The notes: generated by a model not told the origin, from the letters alone. A stretch of 64,000 bases of DNA from Candidatus Acidiferrales bacterium (GCA_035631715.1 DASQIF010000042.1:1582-65581); one strand, 5' to 3'. Shown: positions 29,779 to 63,144, numbered from the stretch's first letter. Numbers and translations are program-made.

Positions 29779-32746
<2,968 letters not shown>

Positions 32747-32757
32747 GTGGCGGCTCG

Positions 32758-33273: not shown

Positions 33274-33275
33274 AG

Positions 33276-45153: not shown

Positions 45154-45181
45154 CGCGACACCTCCCAGGTCCTCTTCGCCA

Positions 45182-45667
45182 TCACAGGATGAAACTAAGC
45201 CGTCCGCCGGGCCGGAGCACCTCGAGCTCGAGCACCGCCCGGCGCTTCCAGAATCGCAGGCGACCGCCCTCGGTCGAGAGCACATGCTCGTACCGGCCGA
45301 CGAACTGGTCGACGTTGCCGTCGCGGATCTTGTAGATGAGGAACGCCGCGTACACCGGCAGGAGCGTGCCGTCGGCCTTGCCCAGGCGCACGTTCGTCAC
45401 GAGACGGCGGGTGCGCGAGTGCGGGTTCTCCGCGTGCGCGTGTTTGCTCTTCAGCCGGCGCACGCGCGCGGAGAGGAGCTCGTAGTCGTCCCACACGTAG
45501 TACTGCGAGCGACGCGGATCCTCGTTCGGACGGTCGGTCGTCGGCACCTCGTACGTGGCGCCCGGCTCGAACGTCTGGAGCCACTCGTCCAGCCGCCACG
45601 CGTCGAGGAGCGCGGCGTCCTCGAAGAGGAAGTCCTCGACCTCCTGGCGCGTGACCGTGGCGATCAC
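45182..45667 (-). CDS. Aromatic ring-hydroxylating dioxygenase beta (small) subunit
   Basis: It has an NTF2-like fold and the motif FLFEDAALLDAWRLDEWL. It is joined to the alpha subunit by an ATGA overlap. Confidence 0.85.
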   Translation of the reverse strand: MIATVTRQEVEDFLFEDAALLDAWRLDEWLQTFEPGATYEVPTTDRPNEDPRRSQYYVWDDYELLSARVRRLKSKHAHAENPHSRTRRLVTNVRLGKADGTLLPVYAAFLIYKIRDGNVDQFVGRYEHVLSTEGGRLRFWKRRAVLELEVLRPGGRLSFIL

Positions 45668-46986: not shown

Positions 46987-47048
46987 GCTCTTCGCGTTTC
47001 TCCCCTCGTCTCGCGATACGATACGACCTCTCGCATCGTGCGCGCGCG

Positions 47049-48050: not shown

Positions 48051-48901
48051 GCGGATCTCCCGTTCATCGCTGTCTCGGGCAGCGCGCCGAAGTCGCGCGA
48101 CAGCTGCGACGCCGTCGCGAGGAGCGCGCGAGCCATGTGCGAGCTCGTGGACTCGGGCACCGACGCGCTCGTGCCGACGATGGCGACGGCGGCGATGCAG
48201 TGGTCGCCCTGGTACACCGGCGCCGCGAGGGCGCGGATCCCGGGTTCGACCTCGGATGCCTCGGCGATGCCCTCCTTGCGGATGCGACGCAGCTCGGCCG
48301 CGAGGCCGGTCTCGCGTCGCAGCGCGCGCCGTAGGCCGGAGATGTCCGACTCGGGCAGGAACGCGCAGAACACGCGGCCCTGGCTCGAACGGAACGGCGT
48401 GAGACGCGCCCCGGTGTGGATGCTGATGCGCACGAGCCGGTCGGGGTTGTCGTCGACGCGCACGACGATCGGCGCCTCACCGTCCCAGATGGAGAGCACC
48501 ACCGTCTCGTTCACCTTGCGCACCAGGGCCTCCATGTGCGGGCCCGCGATCGCCACCACGGGCAGGCCCGCGCCGGCGGCCGCGGACAGCGTGAGGACCT
48601 GCGGGCCGAGGGTGTACTCGTTCGTCGCGGGATCGAATCGCAGCAGGTTCGCCTGTCGCAGCGCGACGGTGTAGCGGTGCGCGGTGGCGCGGCTCACGCC
48701 GAGGCGCGCGGTGATCTCCGACAGCGAGCGCCGCGGCCGGCCGACGGTGAAGAAGCCGAGGATGTGGGCCGCGCGGGCCACCGACTGGATCGCCGACTCG
48801 TGGCCATTGGCATCTTTCGTGGCCCGGAGAGCGGCGCGATCTCGCACGACGGCGAGTGGTGTAGCACGGGCCGCTGTGCGCGTCGAGGCGCGTCGCGTCA
48901 T
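48047..48901 (-). CDS. IclR-family transcriptional regulator
   Basis: It has an N-terminal HTH (IQSVARAAHILGFF...LSEITARLGVSRATAHRYTVAL) and a C-terminal IclR effector domain. It is embedded in the operon by overlaps on both sides. Confidence 0.85.
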   Translation of the reverse strand: MTRRASTRTAARATPLAVVRDRAALRATKDANGHESAIQSVARAAHILGFFTVGRPRRSLSEITARLGVSRATAHRYTVALRQANLLRFDPATNEYTLGPQVLTLSAAAGAGLPVVAIAGPHMEALVRKVNETVVLSIWDGEAPIVVRVDDNPDRLVRISIHTGARLTPFRSSQGRVFCAFLPESDISGLRRALRRETGLAAELRRIRKEGIAEASEVEPGIRALAAPVYQGDHCIAAVAIVGTSASVPESTSSHMARALLATASQLSRDFGALPETAMNGRSA

Positions 48902-49677
48902 GCGAGCACCTGCCGCGTCGCCGCGAGGACGCTCGCGAGACCCGCGCGCATGAACTGCACGTCCGAACCGATGAGGACGTAGCGGAGGCCCTGACCCGCG
49001 AAGGCCGCGAGCTGCTCCGCGTTCGCGACCCACGCGCCCATCGGCACCGACGCGCGGCTCGCCGCCGCCGCGATCTCGGCGACGCGCGCCTTGACGCGCT
49101 CATCGTCGAGCTTCCCCGGGCGGCCCATGTCGACGGACAGATCGGTCGTGCCGATGAAGGCGCAGTCCAGGCCGCGGAGGATGTCATCGAGGCCGTCGTC
49201 GGTCTTCGCCGTCTCGATCTGGCCGACGAGCAGCGGAAAGTCCCTGCTCTTCTGCAGATATGTCCCGAGCGGGATCCCGCTGTAGTCGGCCTGTGGATGC
49301 GCGAGGCTGACGCTTCGCGTGCCATCGGGTGCGTAGCGCGTGGCCGCGACGAGCGCGTCGCGATCCCGCCGCGAGCGCAGCGTCGACAGCTGGATGCCCG
49401 CGGCGCCCGCCTCGAGCATGCGGTTGATCTGGCCGGCGTCGCGCGTGGGCGTGCGCACGAGCATGGGCAGCCCAAGGGCCGCGCCGTGACGGAGCAGCGC
49501 GAGGATGGCGGCCTCGTCGAGCTGCGAGTGCTCCCCGTCGATGGTGGCGAGGTCGAAGCCGACCGATCGCACGAGGTCGACGCTCTCGAGCGCCGGAAGC
49601 TTCACGAAGGTCCCGACGAGCGGCGCGCCCGAGCCGAGCCGGTCGCGCAGCCGCGTCGCCGGGACGGCGTCGGTCAC
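48898..49677 (-). CDS. HpcH/HpaI aldolase-family protein (2-keto-3-deoxy acid aldolase)
   Basis: It starts with GTG 2 nt after the upstream stop. It matches the HpcH_HpaI consensus (LVGTFVKLP, IDGEHS, GQIETA). Confidence 0.8.
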   Translation of the reverse strand: MTDAVPATRLRDRLGSGAPLVGTFVKLPALESVDLVRSVGFDLATIDGEHSQLDEAAILALLRHGAALGLPMLVRTPTRDAGQINRMLEAGAAGIQLSTLRSRRDRDALVAATRYAPDGTRSVSLAHPQADYSGIPLGTYLQKSRDFPLLVGQIETAKTDDGLDDILRGLDCAFIGTTDLSVDMGRPGKLDDERVKARVAEIAAAASRASVPMGAWVANAEQLAAFAGQGLRYVLIGSDVQFMRAGLASVLAATRQVLA

Positions 49678-49679
49678 GT

Positions 49680-50570
49680 TCAGTTCAGGCCGAGGACGCG
49701 CGAGGGATTGTCGCGGACCATCTTTCGCAGATCGCGTTCGCTCACCCCGAGGTCGTTCAGCTCGCCGAGCAGCTTCTTGAACGACTCGACCGGGAGCGGG
49801 TTGTTCACCTGACCGAGATCGCTCCCGATGCTCGTGCGGTCCGCGCCGACGAGGTCGATCCAGCCCTTCAGCTTCGCCGCATCCCAGTGATAGAACTCCG
49901 ACGCCTCGTCGTACATGCAGCACTCGTGCTCGATGAGCGCGCCGGTGTCCGCGAACTTCACGACCTGCTCGCGCGTCGCCTCGATGACGTACTCGGGGTG
50001 GTTCACCACCATGCGCTTCACGCCGGTGTCGCGCGCCGCCTCGAGCAGGATCTGGATGCGGTCCGGCGCCTGGTGTCCCGCGGCCACGACCGCGTCGGCG
50101 TCGGCGATCATCTTGAGGATCACCGGGACCTCCGGCCGGAGCGATCCCTGCTCGTCGAGGATGTCGACGATGTCTGGCTTGCGCAGCGGGACGCTCGGCT
50201 TCGGGAACTTCAGATCGGGATGCGCGGCCTGGTGCTCCTGATGGCGGCGCGCGGAGATCGTCGGGAACCACACGATCTTTGCGCCCATCTTGAGCGCGAG
50301 GTCGACCGCCGAGGGATTCAGGCCGCCGACCATCGAGTTGAGCGCGATCGATCCGAACACCTTCGTCTTGATGCCGTCGAAGTACGGCGCCATCGCGCGC
50401 ACGTCCATCACCGTGGGGTGGTGGTGCGACTTCACGACGATCGCGCGCATCCCCTCCTTGTCCGCCATGCGCGCCGCCTCGACGTGGTCCATGCGGCGCG
50501 GGAACGGCGAGGGACCCGAATGACAGTGCAGGTCGACCGCGCCCTCGAGGATGCGATCGATCGTGCTCAT
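49680..50570 (-). CDS. Amidohydro_2 (PF04909-like) TIM-barrel metal-dependent hydrolase/decarboxylase-family protein
   Basis: It has the N-terminal motif VDLHCH and a C-terminal PSRVLGLN typical of amidohydrolase-2. An ATGA overlap joins it to the upstream gene. Confidence 0.7.
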   Translation of the reverse strand: MSTIDRILEGAVDLHCHSGPSPFPRRMDHVEAARMADKEGMRAIVVKSHHHPTVMDVRAMAPYFDGIKTKVFGSIALNSMVGGLNPSAVDLALKMGAKIVWFPTISARRHQEHQAAHPDLKFPKPSVPLRKPDIVDILDEQGSLRPEVPVILKMIADADAVVAAGHQAPDRIQILLEAARDTGVKRMVVNHPEYVIEATREQVVKFADTGALIEHECCMYDEASEFYHWDAAKLKGWIDLVGADRTSIGSDLGQVNNPLPVESFKKLLGELNDLGVSERDLRKMVRDNPSRVLGLN

Positions 50571-51241
50571 GCAGGCACGGCGGCACCGACGCCGAGCGCG
50601 CGCGCGACATCGGCGATGGATGTCACGAGACCGTGGAAGCGGTCGGTGCTCGCGAGGACGGCGTCGTGCGCGGCCTGGTCGGTATCGGACACGACCTCGG
50701 CCGGGACGAGCACGTCGTAATCGCGCATGTACGCGTCGCGGATGGTTGAGTCGATGCAGAACGAGGTCGTGGTCCCTGCGATGACCAGGACCTGGATGCC
50801 TTTCGCGCGCAGCTCCGTGTTCAGCGGGGTCTCGAAGAACGCGCTCGCGCGGTGCTTGATGATGACGTCGTCCTCGGGCCGCATCACGGCCTTGATCTCG
50901 TCGAGCAGCTCGGTGCCCCACGTGCCGCGGTAGCAGAGCTCGAGCTTCACGCCGCGGCGGTCGAGGTGCGAGGGGATGCGGCGGCGCTTACGCGCCTGAT
51001 CGTCCGGGTAATGGACCTGACGTGTATAGGTGACACGCGCGCCGGCCGCGCGTGCGATTCGGATCATCTCCACCACGGCGGGGATCGACGCTCGCGGCAT
51101 GGCGATGGCGTCGACGCCGAAGGCCTTCGCGCGCGCACCCTCCGGATGGCAAAAGTCGTTCTGCATGTCGACCACCAGGAGCATGACCTCCTTAGGGTCG
51201 AGCTTGGGCAATTCGAGCTTGCGCACCTTGTCCTCAGGCAT
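50567..51241 (-). CDS. Isochorismatase/cysteine-hydrolase-family protein (N-carbamoylsarcosine amidase / maleamate amidohydrolase-like)
   Basis: It has the family motif MLLVVDMQNDFC and a catalytic Cys (TTSFCIDST). Confidence 0.8.
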   Translation of the reverse strand: MPEDKVRKLELPKLDPKEVMLLVVDMQNDFCHPEGARAKAFGVDAIAMPRASIPAVVEMIRIARAAGARVTYTRQVHYPDDQARKRRRIPSHLDRRGVKLELCYRGTWGTELLDEIKAVMRPEDDVIIKHRASAFFETPLNTELRAKGIQVLVIAGTTTSFCIDSTIRDAYMRDYDVLVPAEVVSDTDQAAHDAVLASTDRFHGLVTSIADVARALGVGAAVPA

Positions 51242-51310
51242 CCCCGGCTCCTTCCGCCCGTTCGCTGCACGCTATTTTGCGTCCTGCTCGCGTAGCGAGA
51301 TAGATGTCCA

Positions 51311-53347
51311 TCATGCGGTATGCGGCGCGACACCGTGCGCGCGCGCGATCGCGTCCGCGGTGCGGTAGGCGAGCGCCCAGATCGTTCCGGTGGGGTTGAC
51401 CCCGGCCGACGTCACGAACGTTCCGCTGCCAGCGAGGTAGAGGTTCGGCACGTCGTGCGCCCGGCCGTCCGGGTCGGTCACGCTCTTCGCGGGATCGGTG
51501 CCCATGCGGACGGTCCCCATGTGGTGTCCGGCGTACATCCCGGCCGGCACGGCGGAGCGCTGCGTGAGCACCTCGCGCGCACCCGCTTCGCGAACGACCG
51601 CTGCGACGCGCTCGGCCATGAACGCTTCCATCTCGAGCGTGTTGCGGTGATAGCGGTAGTGGATGCGCAGCCCGGGTCCGCCGTCAGCGAGGCGCAGCGT
51701 GGGATCGAGCTCCACCCGGTTCTCCTCCATCGGGAGGTCCTCGCACAGGGCATACGCGCCGAGGTGGCGGGCATAGGCGCGCGCCAGGAAGTCACGGAAC
51801 TCCGCGCCCCACGGCGGCACCCCGCTCGGCAACGGCGCGGTGAGCCCGGCCGCGTTCGCGAACGCGAGCGGACCGCCGGCGAACACCAGCGGGATCCCGC
51901 CGAGGATCGCGGCGCCGCGCACGAACGAGGCGCCGTGGCGCTCGCGCGGGCGATCCTCGTCGAGGTCGTCGAAGGCGGCGGCGGTCTGCGGGCCGCGGTC
52001 GGCGTAGAGCAACTCCTCGAACGTGCCCCAGGCCATCACGTTGGTGTGGAACATGAGGTTGCGGCCCACCAGGCCGGACGAGTTGGCGAGCCCGCGCGGA
52101 TGCGCGCGCGACGTCGACAGGAGCAGCATGCGCGCCTGGTACGCCGCACCGTTCGCGAGGACGACCGTGCGTGCGGTGACGTCGCGGCGGCCGCGCGCGT
52201 CGCGATAGCGGACGCCGGTCGCCAGGCCGCTGCGCGGATCGGTAAGCACGCGCTCGACCCGCGCGCCGGCGCGGATGTCGATGCGACCGCTCCGTGCAGC
52301 GCGTGCGAGCACGCTGTCGCGGGTGTTCCCCTTCGCGAGGCGGAAGCACTCGTAGTGCGAGCAGTGACCGCACAGATCACAGGCGCGCCGGTCGCCGCGA
52401 TCCGCCGTCAGCACCGCGGCCGGTGTGGCGTACGGCGCGTATCCGAGGCGGCGCGCGGCGTCGGCAAATCGGGACGCCGCGCGCGTGAACGGCACGGCCG
52501 GAAGCGGGAACGGCGCGCTGCGGCGTCCCTCGAACGGATTCGCACCGGCGACGCCGGCGACGCCGATCGCGCGGTCCGCACGCGCGTAGTACGGCTCGAG
52601 GTCCTCATAGCCGATCGGCCAATCGGCGACGCTCGTGCCGGACACGTGACCCGACGTCGACCGCACGCGGAAGTCCGACGGGTGGAAGCGGTACGTGATC
52701 GTCGTCCAGTGCAGCGGGCCGCCGACGCCGATGTTGCGCGCGAGGTACGAGCCGCGCATGACCAGCCCGTCGTTGACCACGAGGTTCTCGGGCTCGTTCC
52801 AGAAGAGCGCGCGCCGCACCTGGAACTCGCGCTCGTCGGTGCTCGCGCGACCGGCGGCCGGTCCAGCCTCGACGGCGATGACGCGCAGCCCGGCCTCGGC
52901 GAGCTCGGCCGCGATGACGCCGCCAGCCGCGCCGAGACCGACGACGATCACGTCGGCGTCGTCGCCGCCGCGACGCGTCTTGATCTTGGGCGGCACCCAC
53001 GTATGCAGCGCACCGGCGGTGGCCGCGACCGGCCGCGCCTCGGCCGCCTCGCGCGTCGTGAAGCCGCGCGGCTGCGGATCACCGACCGCGCCGAGCAGCC
53101 GCCAGCCCCACATCCCGCGGTTGCCGCCGTAGCGCGGATGCGCGAACGCGGCCTCGAGCGCGACGAGACGGAGCGCGAAGAACGCCGACGGTGATTCCTG
53201 TCGAAGCGCGTCGAGCGAAATGGTGCGAAGGATGCCGACCGTGCGACGCAGCGCGGCGCGCTCTGCGGGCGTCGCGTCCGTGAGCCAGCGCGCGGCGTAC
53301 GACGCCGCGCCCGCATCGGCGACACCGGGGACGATCTGATCGAGCAC
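51311..53347 (-). CDS. GMC-family FAD oxidoreductase with an N-terminal gluconate-2-dehydrogenase subunit-3-like domain (fusion)
   Basis: The N-terminal ~90 aa end in HPRYGGNRGMWGW (gluconate 2-DH subunit-3-like). An FAD GxGxxG follows (IVVGLGAAGGVIAAELAEAG), with GMC C-terminal motifs (GTVRMG, TFVTSAGVNPT). It starts with GTG. Confidence 0.75.
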   Translation of the reverse strand: MLDQIVPGVADAGAASYAARWLTDATPAERAALRRTVGILRTISLDALRQESPSAFFALRLVALEAAFAHPRYGGNRGMWGWRLLGAVGDPQPRGFTTREAAEARPVAATAGALHTWVPPKIKTRRGGDDADVIVVGLGAAGGVIAAELAEAGLRVIAVEAGPAAGRASTDEREFQVRRALFWNEPENLVVNDGLVMRGSYLARNIGVGGPLHWTTITYRFHPSDFRVRSTSGHVSGTSVADWPIGYEDLEPYYARADRAIGVAGVAGANPFEGRRSAPFPLPAVPFTRAASRFADAARRLGYAPYATPAAVLTADRGDRRACDLCGHCSHYECFRLAKGNTRDSVLARAARSGRIDIRAGARVERVLTDPRSGLATGVRYRDARGRRDVTARTVVLANGAAYQARMLLLSTSRAHPRGLANSSGLVGRNLMFHTNVMAWGTFEELLYADRGPQTAAAFDDLDEDRPRERHGASFVRGAAILGGIPLVFAGGPLAFANAAGLTAPLPSGVPPWGAEFRDFLARAYARHLGAYALCEDLPMEENRVELDPTLRLADGGPGLRIHYRYHRNTLEMEAFMAERVAAVVREAGAREVLTQRSAVPAGMYAGHHMGTVRMGTDPAKSVTDPDGRAHDVPNLYLAGSGTFVTSAGVNPTGTIWALAYRTADAIARAHGVAPHTA

Positions 53348-53388
53348 CGCGACGAGACGGCGGACGAAGGGGTCCGCCGGGCGCGTGC

Positions 53389-54813
53389 TCAGCCGCGGTC
53401 CAGCAACAGCGACATGCCGTCCACCATGTTCGTCATCTTGCCGAGGAACAGGCTGCCCTTCGCGATAAACAGCGCGTTGCGGAGCGAGCCATCGCGGAGC
53501 TTCGGCAGCGCGTGCGCGAGGTATGGGAGCGCGGCGGGGATGTGCCCCTGCGTCGGGACGAAACCCGGCATGCCGTGCACGCGCTCGAAACCGTCGACCT
53601 CTTCGCGCTTCATCTCGCCGCGCTGCACGCCGAGCGCGGCGATGATGCGGTAGTTCGTGCGCGGGACATTGCCGCTCCCCGCGGGCACGGTGATCTCGGG
53701 GTTGTGCAGCTCGACCGCGTACTTGTCGACGTCGGGGATGCGCAGGCCGAGATGACCGAGAGGCTCAGACACGAGCGCCTCGTAGATGGCGCCAGCGGAA
53801 CCGCCCGACGCGACGGTGTGCTTTCCCACCGCGTCGAGGCGCATGCGGACGCCGCTGCCGTCCGCGGGGCCGACGAGGATCGCCACGGACGCGAGGCAGT
53901 CCTCGAGCAGCGGCATGTCCTTCTGCATGTGGCCCAGCATCTTCATGCCGAGCTTCGCGAGCGATCCACCGCCGACGACGATCACGTTCTTGTACACGCC
54001 GCCCTGCACCAGCGCGCCCGCGAGCACGAGCGCGTGCACCGGCGCGCAGCAGAACGCCTTCACGTCCGAGCCGGTCGCCTGCGTGCAGCCGGCCATCTCG
54101 GCCATGGCCTTCGAGATGCTCCCGCCGCCGCGCTGGTAGCGGTCGCCGACCGCCTCCTCGCCGCAGCCGAGCAGGTACTCGACCTCGCCCGGCTCCATCT
54201 TCATCTGCGCGAGCAGCTCCTTCAGCGCGAGCGCGCCGGAGGCCTTGCACGCGAGGTTCTCGATGAGGATGTCCGCGGTCTGGCTCGAGTCTCCGGGATA
54301 GCCGTTCGCGATGCGGCCGACCTCGGATCCGTCCGCGGCGTTCAGTGAGATCGATCCGTCACTCGAGGCCGGCGGCTTCGCCGCCTTCACCGCGCGCTCG
54401 AGCTCGGCGTCGGCGAACAGGCCGGTGGCGCGGAGCAGATCGCGCGAGCGTTCGAGGCGCGACTTGTCGATGTCGAGGATGCCGAAGTCGTCGGCCATCT
54501 GGAGCAGACCCCAGAAGTGGTCCTCACCCACGATGCGACCCGCGGGTCCGGTCGCGCGCGCCCCCTCGTCACCGTGGCGCCACCACGGCTCGGGCACGCT
54601 CCAGAGCCACTCCGGGCCGTGATTGCCGATGAAGACCTGGTTCGGACCGTACGCGACCGCGTCGTCGAACGAGCGCAGGTGCGGTCGCATCTTGTCGAAG
54701 AGGCCGGGCTCGCGCGCGAGCTCGCGCGTCGGCTTCGAGCCATAGCGAAGAAGACCCGGGGTGTGGGAGATCACGCATGCGATGCCGCGGATGGTGGGGA
54801 ACGTCTCAGTCAT
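53389..54813 (-). CDS. grdC: Glycine/sarcosine/betaine reductase complex component C beta-subunit-like protein (GrdC-like)
   Basis: The N-terminus (GIACVISHTPGLLRYG...LRSFDDAVAYGPNQVFIG) matches my recollection of GrdC. Its start overlaps the grdA stop as ATGA. The assignment is from memory. Confidence 0.6.
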   Translation of the reverse strand: MTETFPTIRGIACVISHTPGLLRYGSKPTRELAREPGLFDKMRPHLRSFDDAVAYGPNQVFIGNHGPEWLWSVPEPWWRHGDEGARATGPAGRIVGEDHFWGLLQMADDFGILDIDKSRLERSRDLLRATGLFADAELERAVKAAKPPASSDGSISLNAADGSEVGRIANGYPGDSSQTADILIENLACKASGALALKELLAQMKMEPGEVEYLLGCGEEAVGDRYQRGGGSISKAMAEMAGCTQATGSDVKAFCCAPVHALVLAGALVQGGVYKNVIVVGGGSLAKLGMKMLGHMQKDMPLLEDCLASVAILVGPADGSGVRMRLDAVGKHTVASGGSAGAIYEALVSEPLGHLGLRIPDVDKYAVELHNPEITVPAGSGNVPRTNYRIIAALGVQRGEMKREEVDGFERVHGMPGFVPTQGHIPAALPYLAHALPKLRDGSLRNALFIAKGSLFLGKMTNMVDGMSLLLDRG

Positions 54814-55277
54814 GACCCGAGGGTACGCTCGCGCACTTTGCGGATGCTCTGCCAGATGTCGTCGGTCTGCATGGCGACCTCAGAGAGACCGATCTGGTCC
54901 TGGTAAATGGACGCGTCGGCCTTCTCCCGAACCTCTGGTTCGGTCACGTGATAGACGGGGAGTCCCAACGAGACTCCGGCCAGCGGACCTGTGTATGTCG
55001 GATCGCCTGCGGTGACCGTCTCAGCCATCATCTCGACGTACGCGGGCTCGGCCGCTCCGAGGATCACTACCAGCCCGTCCTTGCCCTGCGTGTCGTAGAT
55101 GCGCTTGATCTCGGTCTGCTCATCCAGGTCCGAGGCACCGGCGCTCGTTCAGACGAAGCACTGATTCAGCTCGAGCAGCACTTCGGCGCCGGCGCTCCGC
55201 GCCACCGCCGCGATCGCTGTCGCCTGCACTCCGTCACGCTCGCCGATCGCGATGACCTTCTTGCCTTGAAGATCCAA
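54810..55277 (-). CDS. grdA: Glycine/sarcosine/betaine reductase selenoprotein A (GrdA) with in-frame UGA-selenocysteine at 55149..55151
   Basis: A TTG start is preceded by a strong GGAGGGAGGTGA SD. Reading through the in-frame TGA gives MDLQGKKVIAIGERDG...NQCFV-U-TSAGASDLDEQ...AETVTAGDPTYTGPLAGV, which is collinear with the GrdA consensus including the CFVUT motif. The ORF table lists only the 85-aa C-terminal part. Confidence 0.8.
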
Positions 55278-55355
55278 TCGTTCACCTCCCTCCGACTTTC
55301 TTCTCATCGAGTATCGCATTGCGAGGTGCCGTCACGCTAGACGAGACGGCGCATG

Positions 55356-56660
55356 TCAGGACTCGACCGACCCCGAACGGCCGAAGCCGATGGGATTCGC
55401 GGCGCCGGCGTAGAAGGTGCGCCGCTCGAGGGTGATGGCGGTGTCGATCGGGTACGGCACGCCCCCGATCTCCGGACGCACGCGGATGGCCTGATCCCCA
55501 GCCACGCGATCCATCTTCGGGAGCGCCAGCGGCTCGTCGAGGTTCCCCGTGCTCACGATGGCCACCGCCTCAGGCACCGCGAACGGCAACGGGTAGTCCG
55601 AGCCGTCCGGCCCGGCGTGCTCCCACGTGATGAGCACGGTCTTGATGCCACGTCGCTCGCATTCCTGTATCGCCAACATCACCTCGGTGACGTTATTCCC
55701 GGCACCGCCCAGTGTGAACACGACGCCGTTCGCGCCGAGCAGCGTCGCGCTCTCCGCGATGCGCAGGCCGACGCGCTGCTTGTCCTCGTAGAGATAGAAG
55801 TGACCGCGGTGCAGCACGATGCCCGCGAAGTCCCAGCGCTTCCCGTGGGCGGCGACGAGGTGCTCGACGACGGCGTTGTTCTGATGCATCCAGGTGTGGA
55901 GCTTCACGCCGTGGCCGCCCAGGCCGCCCGCGGTGAGCGCCCCGTCGGCGAGCTCGTTCGGATGCACGAGCGTGGGCTGGAGCTCGTCGAGCACGCGTCC
56001 GTACAGACGGCTGCGCATGAACACGCCCTGCGACTGCACCTGATACGCGTAGACGATGCGGGGCAGCGCGGCCGCGGGGCGCGAGAGGTCGCGGTGCTCG
56101 ACCGACGACGGCGCGGCGTCGCGCGCGGTGAGCGCGAGCGCGCGCGCGACCTTCTCGCCGGCGAGGAGCAGGCCGCGCTCGTACCCCTCGTGGTCGACGC
56201 CGTCCTTGAACGTGAACCGGAGCACGACGAGATGCAGGTTGGCGTACGGCTGCAGGTCCGCCCCCGGCCCGGCCATGTCGAGCACGCTGTCGTGCGGAAC
56301 GAAGAGACCTTTCGCGCCGAGCCAGGGAACAGGTCCCGACGTGACGACGGCGACGCCGCGGAGGCGATCGGTGCGGCCGGAGCCGACGGGCTCGACCGCC
56401 GAAAGCAGACCGGGGAACACACCGCCGGTGCCGCCGGACTTCGCGCGTGGCTCGATGACGTCGGTGATCTGCGGGATGCGCACGCTCTCGTGCGGGCGCA
56501 CGAGCATGACCTCGACGCCGGCGAACGCGGGATCCGAGGACGCGAGCGTCGCGATCTCGTCGCGCGCGATGGTCAGCTTGCCGCCGGCGAAGGCGGTGCG
56601 GTCGCCGAACGCGACGTCCGCGACGTCGAAGGTGCCTAGCTCGAGCGTCTTCGCGCTCAT
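55356..56660 (-). CDS. grdE: Glycine/sarcosine/betaine reductase component B alpha/beta proprotein-like (GrdE-family)
   Basis: Its motifs resemble GrdE/PrdA (VEVMLVRPHESVRIPQITDVIEPR, YAYQVQSQGV, WMHQNNAV, IKTVLITWEHAGPDGS). Its start overlaps the grdB stop as ATGA. The assignment is from memory. Confidence 0.6.
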   Translation of the reverse strand: MSAKTLELGTFDVADVAFGDRTAFAGGKLTIARDEIATLASSDPAFAGVEVMLVRPHESVRIPQITDVIEPRAKSGGTGGVFPGLLSAVEPVGSGRTDRLRGVAVVTSGPVPWLGAKGLFVPHDSVLDMAGPGADLQPYANLHLVVLRFTFKDGVDHEGYERGLLLAGEKVARALALTARDAAPSSVEHRDLSRPAAALPRIVYAYQVQSQGVFMRSRLYGRVLDELQPTLVHPNELADGALTAGGLGGHGVKLHTWMHQNNAVVEHLVAAHGKRWDFAGIVLHRGHFYLYEDKQRVGLRIAESATLLGANGVVFTLGGAGNNVTEVMLAIQECERRGIKTVLITWEHAGPDGSDYPLPFAVPEAVAIVSTGNLDEPLALPKMDRVAGDQAIRVRPEIGGVPYPIDTAITLERRTFYAGAANPIGFGRSGSVES

Positions 56661-57970
56661 GACGCACCGCGGAAGAGGGTGGCCTTGTCGATCTTCTCGC
56701 CGAGCGCGCCGAGGGCCGCGCGCACCAGACCGATACGCAGCGCGTGGTCGCCGGCCGGCTCGAGCGTCGGATCGCCGCAGGGGTGCGGGATCTTCACGCC
56801 TCGGATGACGCGGTTCGCGCCGAGGTCCGCCGCGACCGGGCCGAGCGCGGTGATCATCGCGGTGGGCAGCCCGGCACGCTCGAGTTCCGCACTGATCGCT
56901 GCACCGCAGCGATTGCAGGTCCCTCAGGTCGCGGTGAGGATGACCCCGTTCACGCCGCGTTCCTTCAGCTGCGCGGCGATCTCGCGGCCCATGCGGCGCG
57001 CCTCCACCACCGCGGTGCCGACACCGGTCGTGACGATGTAGCGCTCGTCCAGATCGCCGAACGCGTGCGCGTGCTGCAGCTCGCGCACCGCGTCGAGGGG
57101 CATGACGTAGTTCGGATTGCTGTTCGCCGCGCTCGCGTCGTAGCCAGAGTGGATCGACTCATACTTCCCCGGCTCGAGCTGTTCGAGGCCGGCGATCGGG
57201 TACGCGCGCCACTCCGTGGAGTTCGACTGCTTCAGTCCGTCGGGATTGCCCTTGGGGACGATGCCGCCGGTCGTGATGAGCGCGATCCGGGCCGACGCGA
57301 CGTCGGCCAGAGGCGCCGCCGGCGCGACGTGCTCGACCGCTGGGAGCGTGAGCTCGGTCGCGAACTTCTGCCCGGCCATCCGCGCCACGAGCATGTCGAG
57401 CGCGCGCTCCGCGGCCGGACGGTCGAGGATGGCGGTTCGGTGCACGCCCTTGCCGTAATAGCCCTCCACCGCGGCCGCGCCGATGACCTCATGGCGGCCG
57501 AGCCGGATCGCGAACCGCGCGAGCCGTCCAAGGGTCTCGTTCATGCCGAGCGCCGTCGGCGTGGTGGGAAGGACGTAGGTCTTCGCGCGATACAGGTCGA
57601 CCCCCGGGTTCTCCGCGTTCATCGCGGTCACAGCCGGGATCCCGAGCGCCGCGGCGCGCGCGCAGGCCTCGCCACACGCGAGCCCGTAGCGGCCGGCGTT
57701 GAACGCCGGTCCCGCGACGAGGACGTCGGCGCGCTGCTCGCGCAGCGCGGCCGTCACCGCGGCGCCGAACGCCTCGAGGTCGGTGGCCGCGCGGTTGTCG
57801 CCGCAGATGAACGTCGCGACCACCTGGCCGGCGTCGCCGAGCTCCTTCTGCAGACCGATGCCGGGGCCGATCGGACCGCCGCGTACGGTGAAGGGGTGAT
57901 CCCCGGCCTCCTCCGCGCCGATCCGGCCGAAGAACTGATTGACGTAGTGGACGACGCGCAGGCTCGCCAT
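56657..57970 (-). CDS. grdB: Glycine/sarcosine/betaine reductase selenoprotein B (GrdB-family) with in-frame UGA-selenocysteine at 56924..56926
   Basis: Two table ORFs (56924..57970 and 56657..56857) are in the same frame and separated only by TGA. Readthrough gives a 437-aa protein collinear with GrdB (VVHYVNQFFG, GPAFNAGRYG, IPAVTAMNAENPGVD, VILTAT-U-GTCNRCGA, ANRVIRGVKIPHPCGDP). An AGGAGA SD lies upstream of the ATG. Confidence 0.85.
56892..56918 (-). promoter_or_regulatory. SECIS-like stem-loop immediately 3' of the grdB UGA (8-bp perfect stem AUCGCUGC/GCAGCGAU, GGU apical loop, plus a 3-bp lower stem)
   Basis: It is seen directly in the sequence. The mRNA reads UGA GGGAC CUGca AUCGCUGC GGU GCAGCGAU CAG. 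An apical loop with GGU 15-25 nt after UGA is characteristic of bacterial SECIS elements bound by SelB. Confidence 0.55.
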
Positions 57971-58074
57971 CGGGGAAAGGCTCTCCTCTTCGCGCTCCGA
58001 GGTGCCGTCTCACGATACGGGATGCGACCCTTCGACGCTGGACCAAACGCGCGGCGTGAAGGACCATCGCGGCG

Positions 58075-58989
58075 GTGAGATACATCCTCCAGCGCCTCGC
58101 GCAGGGGTTGCTCGTGCTCCTCGGCGTCACGACCATCGTCTTCGCACTCACCTTCGTGGCAGGCGACCCGGTCTCGACGCTCGCGCCGCTCGAGGCGACG
58201 CCGGAGGAGCGCGCCGCGTTCGCGCACAACATGGGCCTCGATCGTCCGATCCCGGTGCAGTACGTCGACTTCCTCGCGCACGCGGTGCGCGGCGACTTCG
58301 GTCTGTCGTACAGCAGCCACGAACCGGCGATGGGCGAGGTGCTCGACCGCCTTCCGGCGACGATCCTCCTCACCGCGGCCGCGGTGCTCTTCGCGCTCGT
58401 CGTCTCCGTCCCGCTCGGCCTGCTGGCGGCGATGAACCACGACCGCTGGGTCGACGTCATCGCGCGGCTCTTCGCGTTCCTCGGCCAGTCGATACCGGTG
58501 TTCCTGCTCGGGATCGTCCTCATCATCGTGTTCGGGGTCGATCTCCACTGGCTGCCGTCCTCGGGCAGCGGCTCGTGGAAGAACCTCGTCATGCCCGCCG
58601 TGGCCGTCGGCTCGTTCTCGGCCGCCGTGCTGGCGCGGCTGCTCCGCTCGAGCCTGCTCGAGGTCCTCGGCCAGGAGTACATCCGCACCGCCTACGCGAA
58701 GGGCCTCCGCGGGCGCGTCGTGGTGGTGCGTCACGCGCTGCGTAATGCCGCGCTCCCGTTCGTCACGATGGTCGGCCTGCAGGTCGGCTTCCTGCTCTCC
58801 GGCGCGGTCGTCGCCGAGACGATCTTCGCGTACCCCGGCATGGGTCGGCTCGCGGTCACGGCCATCTCGCGCAAGGACGTCCCGGTCATCCAGTCGTTCG
58901 TCATCGTGGCCGCGGTGATCGTCATCCTGGCGAACCTGTTCGTCGACCTCGTCTACACGCGGATCGATCCCCGCATCCGTCTGCGGTGA
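58075..58989 (+). CDS. ABC transporter permease (DppB/OppB-like, peptide/nickel family)
   Basis: It starts with GTG, has 6 TMs and carries the EAA-loop region (YIRTAYAKGLRGRVVVVRHALRNA). Confidence 0.85.
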   Translation: MRYILQRLAQGLLVLLGVTTIVFALTFVAGDPVSTLAPLEATPEERAAFAHNMGLDRPIPVQYVDFLAHAVRGDFGLSYSSHEPAMGEVLDRLPATILLTAAAVLFALVVSVPLGLLAAMNHDRWVDVIARLFAFLGQSIPVFLLGIVLIIVFGVDLHWLPSSGSGSWKNLVMPAVAVGSFSAAVLARLLRSSLLEVLGQEYIRTAYAKGLRGRVVVVRHALRNAALPFVTMVGLQVGFLLSGAVVAETIFAYPGMGRLAVTAISRKDVPVIQSFVIVAAVIVILANLFVDLVYTRIDPRIRLR

Positions 58990-59831
58990 GGCGCCGCTGG
59001 ATCTCGCGCGCACGCACCATCCCCGGCTACGCCGGCCTGGCGGTGCTCCTGCTGCTGATCGCCGCGGCCTTGTTGGCGGACCAGATCGCGCCGACCGCGG
59101 ACACGCAGCTGCTCCTGCAGCGGCTCGACGCGCCGACGTGGGCCGGCGGGGCGCACGGATACCTCTTGGGCTCCGACAATCTCGGCCGGGACCTCTTCCT
59201 CCGGATGATCCAGGGCGCGCGGGTCTCGCTCACCGTCGGCTTCATCGGCGTGGTCGTATCCGGCGGCATCGGCATCACCCTCGGGCTCATCGCGGGATAT
59301 CTCGGTGGTAGCTGGGATCGCGTGATCATGCGCGTCGCTGATGTGCAGCAGGCGATCCCGGTCCTGGTCCTCGCCGTGGCGATCGCCGCGATCCTGCGGC
59401 CGAGCGTCGCGAACCTCATCGCGGTGCTGGCGTTGACGACGTGGTTCACGTTCGCGCGCGTCGTGCGCGCGGAGGTCCTCGGTATCCGCGAGATGCTCTA
59501 CGTCGAGTCCGCGCGGGTCGTGGGCGCGAACGCGCGCCGCATCATCGTGCGCCACGTCCTGCCGAACGCCGCGGCATCGATCATCGTCATCGCGACGCTC
59601 CAGGTCGGGAACCTCATCCTCTTCGAGGCGAGCCTGTCGTTCCTCGGTGTGGGCGTGCCGGTGACGACGCCCACCTGGGGCCGGATGGTGTTCGACGGCC
59701 TCGACTACGTTTCGACCGCCTGGTGGATCGCGCTCTTCCCGGGGATCGCGGTCATGACCACGGTCTTCGCGACGAACCTGGTCGGCGACTGGCTCCGCGA
59801 CGCGCTCGACCCGCGGCAGCGCGAGCCCTAG
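58986..59831 (+). CDS. ABC transporter permease (DppC/OppC-like)
   Basis: A GTGA overlap joins it to the previous permease. It has the EAA-loop (ARVVGANARRIIVRHVLPNA). Confidence 0.85.
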   Translation: MRRRWISRARTIPGYAGLAVLLLLIAAALLADQIAPTADTQLLLQRLDAPTWAGGAHGYLLGSDNLGRDLFLRMIQGARVSLTVGFIGVVVSGGIGITLGLIAGYLGGSWDRVIMRVADVQQAIPVLVLAVAIAAILRPSVANLIAVLALTTWFTFARVVRAEVLGIREMLYVESARVVGANARRIIVRHVLPNAAASIIVIATLQVGNLILFEASLSFLGVGVPVTTPTWGRMVFDGLDYVSTAWWIALFPGIAVMTTVFATNLVGDWLRDALDPRQREP

Positions 59832-59847: not shown

Positions 59848-60420
59848 TCACCAGTCGCTGTACGACGGCCAGTCGTCGTGCGCCGCGGGCGCCGATGCGA
59901 CCTTGTCGCTCGACCACGCCGAGTAACTGCGCCGGTAATACATGAGCGGCATCCGTTCGAACGAGTCGCCGCCCTCGACCGACGCGAGAAAGAGCAGGTG
60001 GTCTCCCGCGGCGATGCGCTGCGTGATGACGCACTCCGCGTACGCGACGCTGTCCTCGGCGAGCACCGGGCTCCCGCGAGCGATCTTCGACGGCCGCCAG
60101 TTCACGTGAGCGAACTTCTCCTCGTCCTTGGAGGCGAACGTGTTCGAGAGGCGCTCGCGGCCCGCGGCAAGGAAGTTCACGACGAAGGCACCGCGCGTTT
60201 CGACCGCGTCGAGCGTGCGGGAAGTGTGATCGAGGCTGATGAGCAGGAGCGGAGGTTCGGTGGATACCGCGAGGAATGCCTGAAGGGTGAGCCCCTTTGG
60301 CTGACCGTCAGCGCCGACGGTCGTCACGACGGTGACGCCGGTCGGGAACGCGCTCATGAGTCGACGGAACGTATCGCGATCGAGCGGCAACTCAACACCC
60401 TCTCTACAAGAGTGTCCCAC
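59848..60420 (-). CDS. Flavin reductase-family protein (HpaC-like NAD(P)H:flavin oxidoreductase)
   Basis: It has the motif FRRLMSAFPTGVTVVTT and flavin-reductase-like-fold features. It lies downstream of an LLM gene. Confidence 0.8.
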   Translation of the reverse strand: MGHSCREGVELPLDRDTFRRLMSAFPTGVTVVTTVGADGQPKGLTLQAFLAVSTEPPLLLISLDHTSRTLDAVETRGAFVVNFLAAGRERLSNTFASKDEEKFAHVNWRPSKIARGSPVLAEDSVAYAECVITQRIAAGDHLLFLASVEGGDSFERMPLMYYRRSYSAWSSDKVASAPAAHDDWPSYSDW

Positions 60421-60432
60421 GGCTTTCCGCCG

Positions 60433-61509
60433 TCAGGCGTTCACCAGCCCGATCATGCGCCGGAACGCGCGCGCCAACTCGACGTAGCCCTCCGACCAGC
60501 TCGCGGAGGGCGGCGGCAGCGCGTACAGGCGAACGCCGGTCACGGCGGGCAGCTCGCGGGTGATCGCGCGGATGCGCTGTGCACACTCCTCCGGGGTCCC
60601 CGCGACCGCGAACTGGTCGAGGATGTCGTCGGTGATGAGGTCGGCCAGCTCCTTCGGCAGATAGGGCGACGTCCAGAAGTCCCACTTCGCGAGCGCCGAT
60701 ACCACGTGATCGGGGACGCGGAACTCGTCCGGTCGCTTCCAGTCGGCGCGCTCGCGGGAGTACTTCTCCGCGCCGGCCATCCACAGGATCCCCTGCGCCG
60801 CGGGCCGCGTCGCGGCGCGTTTCGCGGCGCGTCCGTCCTCGCTCACCGAGCAGGGCATGGTGATGTCGATCTCGAAGGAGCCGGGCTTTCTCCCCGCCTT
60901 CGCCGCGCCGCGCGACACGTGCTCGAGCTCATCGCGGCGATGCCCGAGACCCATGAAGAACGCGGCGAGGTGAACGATGTCGGCGAGCTCACCGGCGAGT
61001 TCGATCATGCGTTTGCCGCGCGCGGCGATGAGGATGGGCAGGTCGGCGCGGTACGGCTTGAAGTCGAGCTTCGCGCCCTCGACGCTGATGACCTTGCCGC
61101 GATACGTCACCCTCTCGCCGCGGAACATGCCACGGCAGATGGCGATCGCGTCGCGCACCGCCTCCAACGGATGCGCGCGCTCGTGCGGCCAGAGCGCGGG
61201 CTGCTCGAGCCCGCCGCCGAGACCGAGCACGACGCGACCCTGCGACAGGTCGTCCATCGTCGCCATCGCGACCGCGGTGAGCGACGGATGGCGTACGAAC
61301 GGATCGGTCACCAGGCTCTCGAGCTCGAGACGTGTCGTGGCCTGCAGGCACGCGGTCATCTCGACAAAGAGGTCGGGATAGAAGCGCCAGTCCGCGACGC
61401 CGAAGCGCTGGAAACCCGCGGCCTCGTAGTGCGGCGCGAGCGCGACGAAGCGTTCGGCCGGCTCGCGCCACAGCGATGTCGGGAGGTCGAAGGTGAACTT
61501 CAGGCTCAT
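60433..61509 (-). CDS. LLM-class flavin/F420-dependent oxidoreductase
   Basis: It has a luciferase-like TIM barrel (GRVVLGLGGG). The last 230 aa are ~65% identical to the paralog at 63215..64000. Confidence 0.8.
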   Translation of the reverse strand: MSLKFTFDLPTSLWREPAERFVALAPHYEAAGFQRFGVADWRFYPDLFVEMTACLQATTRLELESLVTDPFVRHPSLTAVAMATMDDLSQGRVVLGLGGGLEQPALWPHERAHPLEAVRDAIAICRGMFRGERVTYRGKVISVEGAKLDFKPYRADLPILIAARGKRMIELAGELADIVHLAAFFMGLGHRRDELEHVSRGAAKAGRKPGSFEIDITMPCSVSEDGRAAKRAATRPAAQGILWMAGAEKYSRERADWKRPDEFRVPDHVVSALAKWDFWTSPYLPKELADLITDDILDQFAVAGTPEECAQRIRAITRELPAVTGVRLYALPPPSASWSEGYVELARAFRRMIGLVNA

Positions 61510-61551: not shown

Positions 61552-63144
61552 TTACTTGCTGACCGTCGTGTTGGTGGCGACGATCGGCGTGACGCCGTGG
61601 GCCTTCCAGCCCTGGACCTTGCTCGAGAGCCCGGTGATCGAGTTGTCGCCGCTGATGTAGATGCCGAACGGATCGGTCGCGAAGACCTTCTCGGCCCCCG
61701 TGTACGCCGAGGTCTGTGTGGCCGCGTCGAGCGTGCCGGCGCCCTGATCGAGGAACTTCTGCGCGTCGGCGTTGCAGAAGTTGGAGAGGAACTGCTTGCA
61801 ACCGGCGAGCAGGTTGAGCAGATCCGGGTGCGTGAAGGTGTTCCAGGTCACGAAGTACATCTGGTCGAACCCATGGGACACCCACTTGTTGTTGAACACG
61901 TCCGTGGGCATCACGTTGAGGTTGACCTTGATGCCGACCTGCGCGAGCTGCGCGACGATCGCCTGCGGCACGTCCTGCTTCGCGGTGTTGGAGACGTCCG
62001 CGTCGATGGTGAAGCCGTTCGGGTACCCGGCGTCAGCAAGGAGTTGCTTCGCCTTCGCCTGATCGAACGCGAATGGCTTGAGATCGCTCGTGAAGCCCAT
62101 GGTGAGGTCGGTGACGCCACCGGCCAGCTGCCGCGCGTGGCCGCCGAGGACGGTCTTGATGATCGTCGCGGTGTCGACCGCGTAGTTCATCGCCTGGCGG
62201 ACGCGGGTGTCGAGCAGTGGCTTCGCCGACGGAGATGTGCTGAGGGTGTTGTAGAAGGCCCAGTTGTAGACCGGACTCTTCGACTCCACCACGTTGAAGC
62301 CACCCGACTTCAGCGGGTCGACCTGGTCGGTCGGAAGGTCCTGGACCATGTCGACCGAGCCGGCCTTCAGCTCGGAGACGCGCGTCGCGGCGGTCGGGAT
62401 CGCGCGGAAGACGAGCGTCTTCACGAGCGGCTTGCCCTTCCAGCTTCCGGACCAGTAGTCGGCGTTCGCCTCCATGGTGATGCGGTCGTCCTTGGCCCAC
62501 GACACGAACTTGAACGGGCCGGTGCCGATCGGCTTCGAAATGAAGCCGGCCTGGCCGACCGACTGGTAGTACTTCGACGGGAGGATGGACAGGTTGTTCG
62601 CGAACGTGTCGAGGATGCGCGGGTCGACCTTGTTCAGGTTCACGGTGACGGTGTTGTCGTCGACGACCGTCGCGCCGTCCACGGCGCCGAAGTTCCCGGC
62701 CTGACCCGAGTTCAGGTCCTTGCTCTTCAGCGTGTCGATCGAGAACTTCACGTCGGCGGCCGTCAGCGGATCGCCGTTGTGGAACTTCACGCCCTTGCGC
62801 AGCGTGAAGGTGATGTTCTTTCCGTCCACCTTCCACGACTCCGCGAGCGCCGGCACGATCTTGCCGTCGTAGTCCCACTCGACGAGCGCGTCGAACACGT
62901 TGTAGCGGTACGAGATGCCGACGATGTCGTAGCTGAGGTACGGATGCGTGCTCTGGATGTCGCCGCGCATCGCGATGGTGAGCGTGCCCTGCGGGCCGGC
63001 CGGCGTCGGGGCCACCGTCGCCGCGGCCGTGCCGGGCGCGCCCGAGGCGCCCGGCGACGCCTGCTGCGTGCAGGCGACGACGAACGCGAGCGCGAGCGGA
63101 AGCGCGAGCATCCGCGCGAGCTTTGGGAACCGTCCGAACGTCAT
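61552..63144 (-). CDS. ABC transporter substrate-binding lipoprotein, family 5 (DppA/OppA-like)
   Basis: It has a signal peptide and lipobox (LAFVVAC). It matches the SBP_bac_5 pattern (ESWKVDGKNITFTLRKGVKFHNGDPLTAADVKFS). Confidence 0.85.
   Translation of the reverse strand: MTFGRFPKLARMLALPLALAFVVACTQQASPGASGAPGTAAATVAPTPAGPQGTLTIAMRGDIQSTHPYLSYDIVGISYRYNVFDALVEWDYDGKIVPALAESWKVDGKNITFTLRKGVKFHNGDPLTAADVKFSIDTLKSKDLNSGQAGNFGAVDGATVVDDNTVTVNLNKVDPRILDTFANNLSILPSKYYQSVGQAGFISKPIGTGPFKFVSWAKDDRITMEANADYWSGSWKGKPLVKTLVFRAIPTAATRVSELKAGSVDMVQDLPTDQVDPLKSGGFNVVESKSPVYNWAFYNTLSTSPSAKPLLDTRVRQAMNYAVDTATIIKTVLGGHARQLAGGVTDLTMGFTSDLKPFAFDQAKAKQLLADAGYPNGFTIDADVSNTAKQDVPQAIVAQLAQVGIKVNLNVMPTDVFNNKWVSHGFDQMYFVTWNTFTHPDLLNLLAGCKQFLSNFCNADAQKFLDQGAGTLDAATQTSAYTGAEKVFATDPFGIYISGDNSITGLSSKVQGWKAHGVTPIVATNTTVSK

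Follow-up and report, generated by a model that had tools for sequence, protein, structure and literature searches.

Glycine-reductase-type (Grd) selenoenzymes are textbook anaerobic enzymes of Stickland metabolism, and their known substrates are four: glycine, sarcosine, betaine and, recently, fluoroacetate. What, then, is a grdB-grdE-grdA-grdC module doing in front of genes for aromatic oxygenases? We address this question for a 64-kb stretch of DNA from a Candidatus Acidiferrales bacterium (GCA_035631715.1, DASQIF010000042.1:1582-65581). The whole stretch is referred to as the window, and coordinates are counted from its first letter. The best explanation, to which we give a probability of about one half, is that the module encodes a functional selenium-dependent Grd-type reductase with a new substrate specificity, which would serve the aerobic catabolic cluster beside it.

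Organization of the grd module

The four genes lie on the minus strand where an earlier note on this DNA had placed them, and all are read by direct translation and by profile matches. Genes in the window, whose G+C content is about 69% along its full length, were called by codon-position G+C, and the starts of several neighbors are approximate. The genes and their selenocysteine (Sec) elements, including the hairpins resembling a Sec insertion sequence (SECIS), are as follows.

57970..56657, minus strand: grdB-like selenoprotein gene; 437 aa, Sec at codon 349, U-x-x-C-x-x-C motif
56926..56924, minus strand: UGA Sec codon of the grdB-like gene; motif LTAT-U-GTCNRCG
56895..56913, minus strand: SECIS-like hairpin of grdB; perfect 8-bp stem AUCGCUGC/GCAGCGAU, GGU loop, 13 nt after the UGA
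56660..55356, minus strand: gene of a grdE/G/I-family subunit; 434 aa, Pfam Gly_reductase 319 bits
55277..54810, minus strand: grdA, selenoprotein A gene; 155 aa, TTG start, C-x-x-U motif
55151..55149, minus strand: UGA Sec codon of grdA; motif CFV-U-TSAG
55110..55134, minus strand: SECIS-like hairpin of grdA; 5+3-bp stem
54813..53389, minus strand: grdC; 474 aa, KAS III-like, invariant Cys in an AFCCAP motif

Judged by profile scores, the locus belongs to the broad Grd-type selenoprotein reductase family, and the family assignments are firm. The GrdB-like protein reaches 417 bits with Pfam GRDB and 438 bits with the broad GrdB family model TIGR01918, far above its cut-off of 65. GrdA scores 182 bits with Pfam GRDA and 188 bits with NF040748 (cut-off 130), and GrdC scores 549 bits with NF040746 (cut-off 450). 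For the exact GrdC sequence of the window, no match is on record in public contigs.

Direct reading of the sequence reveals the ATGA overlaps that had been claimed to couple grdB with grdE and grdA with grdC. The gap between grdE and grdA is 78 nt, and the TTG start of grdA is preceded by the Shine-Dalgarno sequence GGAGGGAGG. A gene for a GMC-type oxidoreductase follows grdC after 41 nt on the same strand and the oxygenase genes lie further on, so that the module heads a co-directional string, as the earlier note had described.

Conservation of the module and its catabolic neighbors

The homologues of the GrdE-like subunit are almost all metagenomic, and the named ones come from Ca. Limnocylindria or Chloroflexota metagenome-assembled genomes (MAGs). 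The window itself resembles DNA of Ca. Limnocylindria, which are abundant soil Chloroflexota; the mean G+C content of this class is 68.9% (PMC10608941). With one genome per GTDB species, we found the clade of the window protein (59-84% identity) in 11 species, all of them Chloroflexota/Limnocylindria. In an exhaustive profile search of 1.84 billion representatives, this clade forms one 50%-identity cluster, of which the next relative is 47% identical and the others at most 43%.

The conserved gene order runs LLM-HpcH-LLM-SBP5-LLM-<permease-<permease, divergent from grdB-grdE-grdA-grdC-GMC-isochorismatase-DUF6282-HpcH-IclR-cupin-Rieske, where LLM denotes a luciferase-like oxidoreductase and SBP5 a family-5 solute-binding protein. 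It is present in all 7 of the 11 clade species whose contigs are long enough (L013, L014, L016, L017, L018, L019 and L021 in our numbering of loci), and also in the metagenome contigs L001 and L005. The arrangement of grdBEAC with GMC, hydrolase and dioxygenase genes, for which the earlier note had looked to comparative genomics, is thereby conserved in seven Limnocylindria species. The synteny with catabolic genes holds over GrdE identities from 84% to 70%. Against three species, the ratio of nonsynonymous to synonymous substitution rates (dN/dS) is 0.16-0.39 in all four grd genes, which indicates purifying selection.

Other loci show that the module can be taken apart. At 59% identity, L003, L004 and L022 keep grdA, grdB, grdE, the permeases, SBP5 and the LLMs and have no adjacent grdC; their neighbors include amidohydrolases and an isochorismatase. 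In L021 (JBOGTE010000042.1), which has no GMC gene, we notice a second grdE/grdB pair (L021:8398-11021), inverted and inserted between grdE and grdA. Compared with the window pair, its identity is 43% (GrdE) and 50% (GrdB), and the motif in this second GrdE is DGNIAGPW, again with no Cys. Because the second pair lies beside a single grdA-grdC, the two B-type pairs of L021 would share it. Several protein B complexes are known to feed one common reductase (PMC10838667), and the modular loci (two pairs in L021, no grdC in L003 and L004, grdA-grdC alone in L006) fit this statement.

A parallel arrangement occurs in another phylum. In five Pyrinomonadaceae/Blastocatellia loci, a GGH-type GrdE that is 40-42% identical to the window protein and likewise has no pyruvoyl-forming Cys is followed directly by a Rieske oxygenase. 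The full order grdC-A-B-E is seen in three of the five, and the other two have short flanks. This parallel adds weight to a catabolic role that would be compatible with oxygenases. Around these loci (L007:1-17440, L024-L028), we observe after grdE a GbcA-like Rieske protein (146 bits), a cupin, a SnoaL-like protein and an amidase; the upstream side carries caprolactamase/hydantoinase A/B, Amidohydro_2, GGT and amine oxidase genes. Our literature search brought up no account of Grd genes for Limnocylindria, soil Chloroflexota lineages or Acidobacteriota.

Components absent from the locus

The earlier note had stated that GrdD, GrdX and the thioredoxin genes trxA and trxB are missing in cis, and this is borne out across the 64-kb window. 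Pfam scans of all called genes found no GrdD, GrdX, thioredoxin (Trx) or thioredoxin reductase (TrxR). Searches by tblastn with GrdD, TrxA and TrxB from the canonical betaine reductase cluster of Enterococcus gilvus plasmid pCR1A (L009) returned nothing in the window even at E<1, and neither did Bacillota GrdX or Dehalococcoidia Trx/TrxR. By Pfam and tblastn, Trx/TrxR, GrdD and GrdX were likewise not found in the Limnocylindria-clade loci. GrdD gave 0 matches at E<1 in the window and in 20 non-redundant related loci, each covering at least 1.2 kb on either side of grdC. Syntenic relatives with long contigs likewise show neither grdD nor trx genes over some 10 kb to each side, and none of the findings that the earlier note had named as refuting its claim was made. 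One detail of the earlier note has to be reversed: the thiolase-like subunit is GrdC (KAS III/thiolase-like). GrdD (NF040747) has weak PlsX similarity, and hence resembles a phosphate acyltransferase, not a thiolase.

The absence of an adjacent grdD is real and conserved, but as a trait of large uncharacterised Grd branches and not as a peculiarity of this locus, because GrdD-less GrdCs occur in MAGs of Chloroflexota, Acidobacteriota, Bacillota and Proteobacteria/Desulfobacterota. No GrdD accompanies the lone grdA-grdC of the Chloroflexota locus L006, the grdC-grdA-grdB-grdE-Rieske order of Pyrinomonadaceae (L007, L024-L027), the grdC-grdA of the Dehalococcoidia locus L010 with Trx/TrxR 3 kb away, or the grdE-grdB / grdA-grdC loci of Proteobacteria/Desulfobacterota MAGs (L035, L042, L044, L047, L048, L051, L056). 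The Bacillota MAG locus L008, ordered grdC-grdA-grdX-grdE-grdB-Grx-gcvTHP, passes the glycine reductase motif and has GrdX and the pyruvoyl Cys, yet grdD is missing within 8 kb. The lack of grdD therefore stands as part of the description of a non-canonical module, and it does not by itself mark the window locus as special.

Among PLSDB replicons with GrdC, GrdD lies directly downstream in 5/5. In a small neighbor-joining tree, the GrdD-linked GrdCs (L009, L033, L059) form one clade and the GrdD-less GrdCs (L006-L008, L010, L024, L025, L035, L042, L044, L047, L048, L051, L056) form two others. All GrdCs compared, GrdD-linked or not, have one invariant Cys in common, within AFC[CA]AP. Two loci of this comparison are unusual in themselves. 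In a Peptococcaceae MAG (L033:3737-6289), GrdC and GrdD are apparently fused in one open reading frame (ORF) of 851 aa. In the Dehalococcoidia MAG (L010:184-7894), grdC, grdA and the gene of a divergent GrdE-like protein have a reductive dehalogenase homologue and Trx/TrxR genes as neighbors.

Relation of the module to the oxygenases

The same genes might instead form an anaerobic or micro-oxic, Stickland-like electron sink that is functional and regulated apart from the oxygenases, with GrdD and TrxAB encoded elsewhere; the clustering would then stem from a common substrate family or from a catabolic island, and not from co-operation under oxygen. All Grd systems characterised so far work anaerobically (PMC13188914, PMC9908766), and the gene of an IclR-family regulator separates the hydrolase/aldolase genes from those of the oxygenases. 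Limnocylindria MAGs have been reported from almost every habitat category, anoxic ones perhaps included (PMC10608941). The glycine reductase locus L008, with no grdD within 8 kb, implies that grdD may be unnecessary or may lie at another site. On the other hand, the GMC gene follows grdC by only 41 nt, and seven species share the complete order unchanged. Moreover, the adjacency of Grd and Rieske genes recurs independently in Acidobacteriota, with no regulator between them. No terminator-like site lies between the modules: in our scan of 47000..59000, the only hit was a terminator-like site inside the cupin gene, and promoter-like sites were absent. The scan, which gave fewer sites than shuffled sequence, is uninformative for a high-GC organism. 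We consider such an electron sink possible, though unlikely.

Specificity of the protein B pair

Both B-type subunits score far below the specific NCBIfam models. The GrdB-like protein obtains 447 bits against GrdF (NF040794, cut-off 800), 420 against GrdH (NF040795, cut-off 775) and 394 against the glycine-reductase equivalog TIGR01917 (cut-off 602). The GrdE-like protein obtains 249.5 bits against GrdG (NF040793, cut-off 780) and 105 against FarE (NF053623, cut-off 675). Distant similarity to D-proline reductase is also seen (PrdB 88 bits, PrdA 34 bits), and a PDB sequence search returned no Grd-family structure for the GrdE-like subunit. Sequence motifs of GrdB and GrdF have been published by Nobu et al., 2022 (PMC9751293). 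The GrdB motif fails in the window at GGE, AHGGxD, RV[IL]PxD and TxGNxTxV, whereas the control locus L008 passes. The GrdF motif fails as well, as IHGGYDR and TTGTGT are absent and the window reads IHSGYDA and TTGVGT.

The GrdE pyruvoyl cofactor derives from Cys242 by cleavage, as has been established experimentally (PMC9908766). In an alignment with about 140 representatives, the GrdE-like protein of the window carries AGG-L-GGHG at the canonical SGN-C-VSAC-DK site, and GGLGGH stands in place of the pyruvoyl Cys site in every clade member. The GrdI of E. gilvus also has no pyruvoyl-forming Cys. The residue is missing in most of the wider GrdE family too, and its absence is not specific to betaine reductase. 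GrdI and FarE are not proproteins for want of this Cys, and only glycine and sarcosine call for a Schiff base (PMC10838667). Since the GrdE-like protein has no pyruvoyl-forming Cys, substrates of the glycine/sarcosine (Schiff-base) type are disfavored. The protein resembles GrdI and FarE in the absence of the Cys alone; by sequence it is in neither family.

By these comparisons, the B-type pair is not a glycine, sarcosine or betaine reductase, and the locus fails every test for the four characterised specificities, fluoroacetate being the fourth. With sub-cut-off scores, failed motifs and an isolated clade, the proteins fall outside the ordinary GrdB/GrdE clades that the earlier note had held in view as a counterargument. 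Its gene name grdE stands as a statement of family membership (Gly_reductase 319 bits) and does not extend to the identity of a GrdE proprotein. Its substrate idea, an N-substituted glycine or a betaine-like compound, is likewise divided: the betaine-like half fits, and a glycine/sarcosine-type compound is disfavored.

We also considered an ordinary glycine, sarcosine or betaine reductase that has diverged in a distant phylum, for which the proximity of the oxygenases would be functionally meaningless. Its best NCBIfam matches are indeed GrdF, GrdH and GrdB (447, 420 and 394 bits), and public annotations name the homologues glycine, sarcosine or betaine reductase. Yet these scores, and that of GrdG, lie far under the cut-offs, and the GrdB and GrdF motifs fail where L008 passes that of GrdB. 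The missing Cys excludes a glycine/sarcosine-type proprotein. GrdX is absent, and the window has no BCCT/OpuD-type betaine transporter gene, a family-5 solute-binding ABC system being present instead. The catabolic synteny, moreover, is kept from 84% down to 70% GrdE identity. We judge this explanation improbable.

The locus could also encode a Far-like reductive dehalogenase of haloacetates (fluoro- or chloroacetate) that acts in detoxification. FarE is among only four NCBIfam matches of the GrdE-like subunit, and it too is without the processing cysteines (PMC10838667). However, the match to FarE has only 105 bits (cut-off 675). The CxxC that would follow the Sec is missing from FarB (PMC10838667), whereas the window GrdB keeps UxxCxxC. 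The locus contains neither a far-type radical SAM gene nor an oxalate/formate antiporter gene, and its conserved neighbors are amide hydrolases and aromatic oxygenases. Such an enzyme seems very unlikely.

Selenocysteine codons

The similarity to the family models runs through both TGA codons up to the model ends. The grdB UGA is kept as ILTAT-U-GTCNRCGA in all nine of the Limnocylindria-clade loci that cover the region (9/9), and a hairpin stands at the equivalent position in every fetched GrdB-family gene. Its stem covaries, with CGCUGC/GCAGCG in the window, CGUUGC/GCAACG in Enterococcus GrdH and CGAUGC/GCAUCG in Synergistaceae. The grdA hairpin sequence, CUCGG..CUG-GAUGAG-CAG.CCGAG, is kept in most Limnocylindria loci. 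An Rfam scan of 53000..58500 matched no family, and the SECIS elements were therefore judged from folds and comparisons. The NCBI annotation of the homologous MAG locus L002 reads through both UGAs, giving proteins of 437 aa and 155 aa. Neither a tRNA (tRNA-Sec included) nor a sel gene was found within the 64-kb window.

A decaying remnant whose TGA codons are true stops and which makes no full-length proteins is scarcely credible: automatic gene callers do split grdB and grdA at TGA in several metagenome records, but homology spans both TGAs to the model ends, the TGAs fall precisely on known Sec sites, the stems of the conserved SECIS-like hairpins covary, all four genes have dN/dS values of 0.16-0.39, and the L002 annotation reads through (437 aa, 155 aa).

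Neighboring genes

Downstream of the module, on the minus strand, the catabolic cluster contains the following genes, which small gaps separate.

51311..53347, minus strand: GMC-type flavin adenine dinucleotide (FAD) oxidoreductase; the true start is maybe ~20 nt upstream, and homologues have an N-terminal Gluconate_2-dh3 domain
50567..51241, minus strand: isochorismatase-family cysteine hydrolase; RutB 77 bits, biuret hydrolase 76, N-carbamoylsarcosine amidase 36
49680..50540, minus strand: DUF6282 protein, with no NCBIfam or PDB match; start approximate
48898..49680, minus strand: HpcH/HpaI-family aldolase; start approximate
48047..48850, minus strand: IclR-family regulator; start approximate
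47049..48050, minus strand: bicupin; weak similarity to gentisate 1,2-dioxygenase
45664..~46980, minus strand: Rieske ring-hydroxylating oxygenase, alpha subunit; BenA 269 bits and anthranilate dioxygenase alpha 232, both sub-cut-off
45182..45667, minus strand: Rieske oxygenase, beta subunit
44278..45285, minus strand: extradiol dioxygenase; start approximate
43782-44273, minus strand: 2Fe-2S subunit of a molybdenum hydroxylase, a separate gene
39653-42919, minus strand: fused molybdenum hydroxylase, 1088 aa, with the large and FAD-binding (CO dehydrogenase flavoprotein) subunits in one protein
37331-38643, minus strand: thiamine pyrophosphate (TPP)-dependent enzyme, split into genes for the N-terminal and the C-terminal domain

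Upstream of the module lie the genes of a putative importer and of further oxidoreductases.

58075..58989 and 58986..59831, plus strand, divergent: two ABC permease genes, syntenic in all Limnocylindria loci
59848..60420, minus strand: flavin reductase (HsaB/StyB/RutF-like), between the LLM and ABC permease genes
60433..61509, minus strand: LLM, syntenic in relatives
61552..63144, minus strand: family-5 solute-binding protein, syntenic in relatives

Only the window has the flavin reductase; tblastn detected none at the equivalent position in the syntenic Limnocylindria loci. We notice that an F420-type LLM gene sits between the 2Fe-2S and the fused molybdenum hydroxylase genes. The split TPP enzyme adjoins an M20 hydrolase and a TRZ/ATZ-type amidohydrolase, and these two show weak sub-threshold matches to the selenium-linked YgeY and SsnA families. 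The farthest downstream gene listed, past the TRZ/ATZ-type amidohydrolase, is another LLM.

Three pathway assignments were rejected on these matches. The Rut pathway fails on the weakness of the RutB and RutF resemblance and on the LLMs, which match F420-type models and not RutA. A selenium-dependent molybdenum hydroxylase or purine fermentation context fails because the SsnA- and YgeY-like matches are far below the cut-offs. A route from creatinine to sarcosine fails on the weak N-carbamoylsarcosine amidase match (36 bits) and on the absent Cys, which argues against sarcosine.

Two of the genes named in the earlier note have to be seen differently. The isochorismatase that had been called N-carbamoylsarcosine-amidase-like reaches only 36 bits with that model and is closer to RutB (77) and biuret hydrolase (76). 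The gene of the sarcosine oxidase (DAO) family at 23575..24726 is 30 kb off on the other strand, with no evidence of a link. It is followed by an Amidohydro_1 gene (23575-26302, plus strand, for the two). Between the DAO gene and grd, we observe unrelated genes for an ArsA ATPase, a PucR regulator, a member of the isocitrate/isopropylmalate dehydrogenase family and an MFS transporter. The plus-strand genes at 31315-33887, namely a 469-aa ORF without a Pfam match, an Imm5-like immunity protein (32758..33273) and a 203-aa ORF without a match, may include a toxin-immunity pair.

Proposed reaction and its implications

For the selenium-dependent reductase that we favor, the chemistry can be outlined by homology with the established Grd mechanism, which is summarised in PMC13188914, PMC9908766 and PMC10838667. 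The GrdB-like/GrdE-like pair (protein B) would bind a compound X-CH2-COO-, and the selenol of the GrdB-like subunit would attack the alpha-carbon and expel X. As there is no pyruvoyl-forming Cys, no Schiff base would be available to activate the bond, and X should leave without iminium activation. X would thus be a good leaving group, such as a quaternary or tertiary ammonium, N-heteroaryl or aryloxy group, and is unlikely to be the NH2 of glycine or the NHCH3 of sarcosine. The carboxymethyl group would pass to the Sec of GrdA and be reduced there to an acetyl thioester, with oxidation of GrdA. The general thioredoxin system of the cell, encoded elsewhere, would reduce GrdA again. The acetyl group would then be taken by the invariant Cys of the KAS III-like GrdC, from which it may be released, without GrdD, by transfer to coenzyme A (CoA), by hydrolysis or by a phosphotransacylase encoded elsewhere.

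In the cell, the module would strip a carboxymethyl side chain from an intermediate of an aerobic catabolic pathway. The importer, LLMs, carbamoyl/ureido-type hydrolase, aldolase, aromatic oxygenases and molybdenum hydroxylase around it point to a nitrogenous and/or aromatic carboxymethyl compound. The aerobic lifestyle of the host is suggested by the O2-dependent enzymes of the cluster and by general descriptions of the class. The substrate class and the acetyl acceptor are inferred, as are joint expression of the grd and oxygenase genes and a reductase that works in the presence of oxygen.

Several points weigh against this reading. To our knowledge, Grd enzymes occur only in anaerobes, and selenol/thiol chemistry is generally considered oxygen-sensitive. 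The enzymes encoded nearby match at family level only, below all specific cut-offs, and we name no substrate for this reason. With an IclR gene inside the cluster, the Grd and oxygenase genes could be expressed under different conditions. The missing Cys, common in the wider family, narrows the substrate class without naming it.

If the module functions as proposed, the Grd family would extend to new substrates and possibly to oxic metabolism, and selenium would become a requirement where certain nitrogenous or aromatic compounds are broken down aerobically in soil. The need for GrdD in the last Grd step would be called into question, and the automatic names glycine, sarcosine or betaine reductase would probably be wrong for these genes. 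More tentatively, we speculate that aerobic soil bacteria of two or more phyla, Limnocylindria and Pyrinomonadaceae among them, might share a Grd-type reductive 'de-carboxymethylase' in oxygenase pathways. This enzyme might work without a pyruvoyl group, tolerate O2 and act on aryloxy-, N-heteroaryl- and quaternary-ammonium-acetates. Its acetyl product might leave by way of GrdC only, with CoA as one conceivable acceptor, in place of the GrdD route to phosphate, and such enzymes might constitute a new functional class of Grd.

Comparison with known systems

D-proline reductase (PrdA/PrdB) has a different architecture, with a pyruvoyl proprotein, no GrdA or GrdC and no acetyl-thioester chemistry, and its homology to the window proteins is only distant. 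The glycine reductase GrdB/GrdE of Clostridium sticklandii and C. difficile, for which L008 is our example, has the same four families and the same Sec positions. The GrdC of L008 is short (478 aa) and has no adjacent grdD, as in the window. In contrast, the window GrdB fails the GrdB motif and TIGR01917, the GrdE-like protein is without SGN-C-VSAC, and there is no GrdX. Among the specific NCBIfam models, those of sarcosine reductase (GrdF/GrdG) give the best scores with both B-type subunits of the window. However, GrdG is a Cys-processed proprotein, whereas the window protein is not, and the GrdF motif fails in the window.

The betaine reductase GrdH/GrdI of the Eubacterium acidaminophilum type, exemplified by E. 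gilvus pCR1A (L009), shares UxxCxxC, the CxxU of GrdA, the invariant Cys of GrdC and the position of the SECIS hairpin, and its GrdI has no pyruvoyl-forming Cys, like the window protein. Nevertheless, the window proteins are only 40% identical to GrdH and 31-32% to GrdI. The order in L009 is trxB-trxA-grdA-grdC-grdD-grdI-grdH-BCCT, whereas the window reads B-E-A-C, without trx, grdD or BCCT genes and with oxygenase and hydrolase neighbors.

The fluoroacetate reductase FarB/FarE of Cloacibacillus porcorum is a protein B of Grd type whose large subunit is not cleaved. Its operon includes a radical SAM enzyme and an antiporter, its host is a strict anaerobe, and FarB has no CxxC, whereas the window locus keeps CxxC and has no radical SAM gene. 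Because FarB/FarE acts on a non-amine X-CH2-COO- substrate, it provides a precedent for non-amine leaving groups in a Grd-type protein B (PMC10838667).

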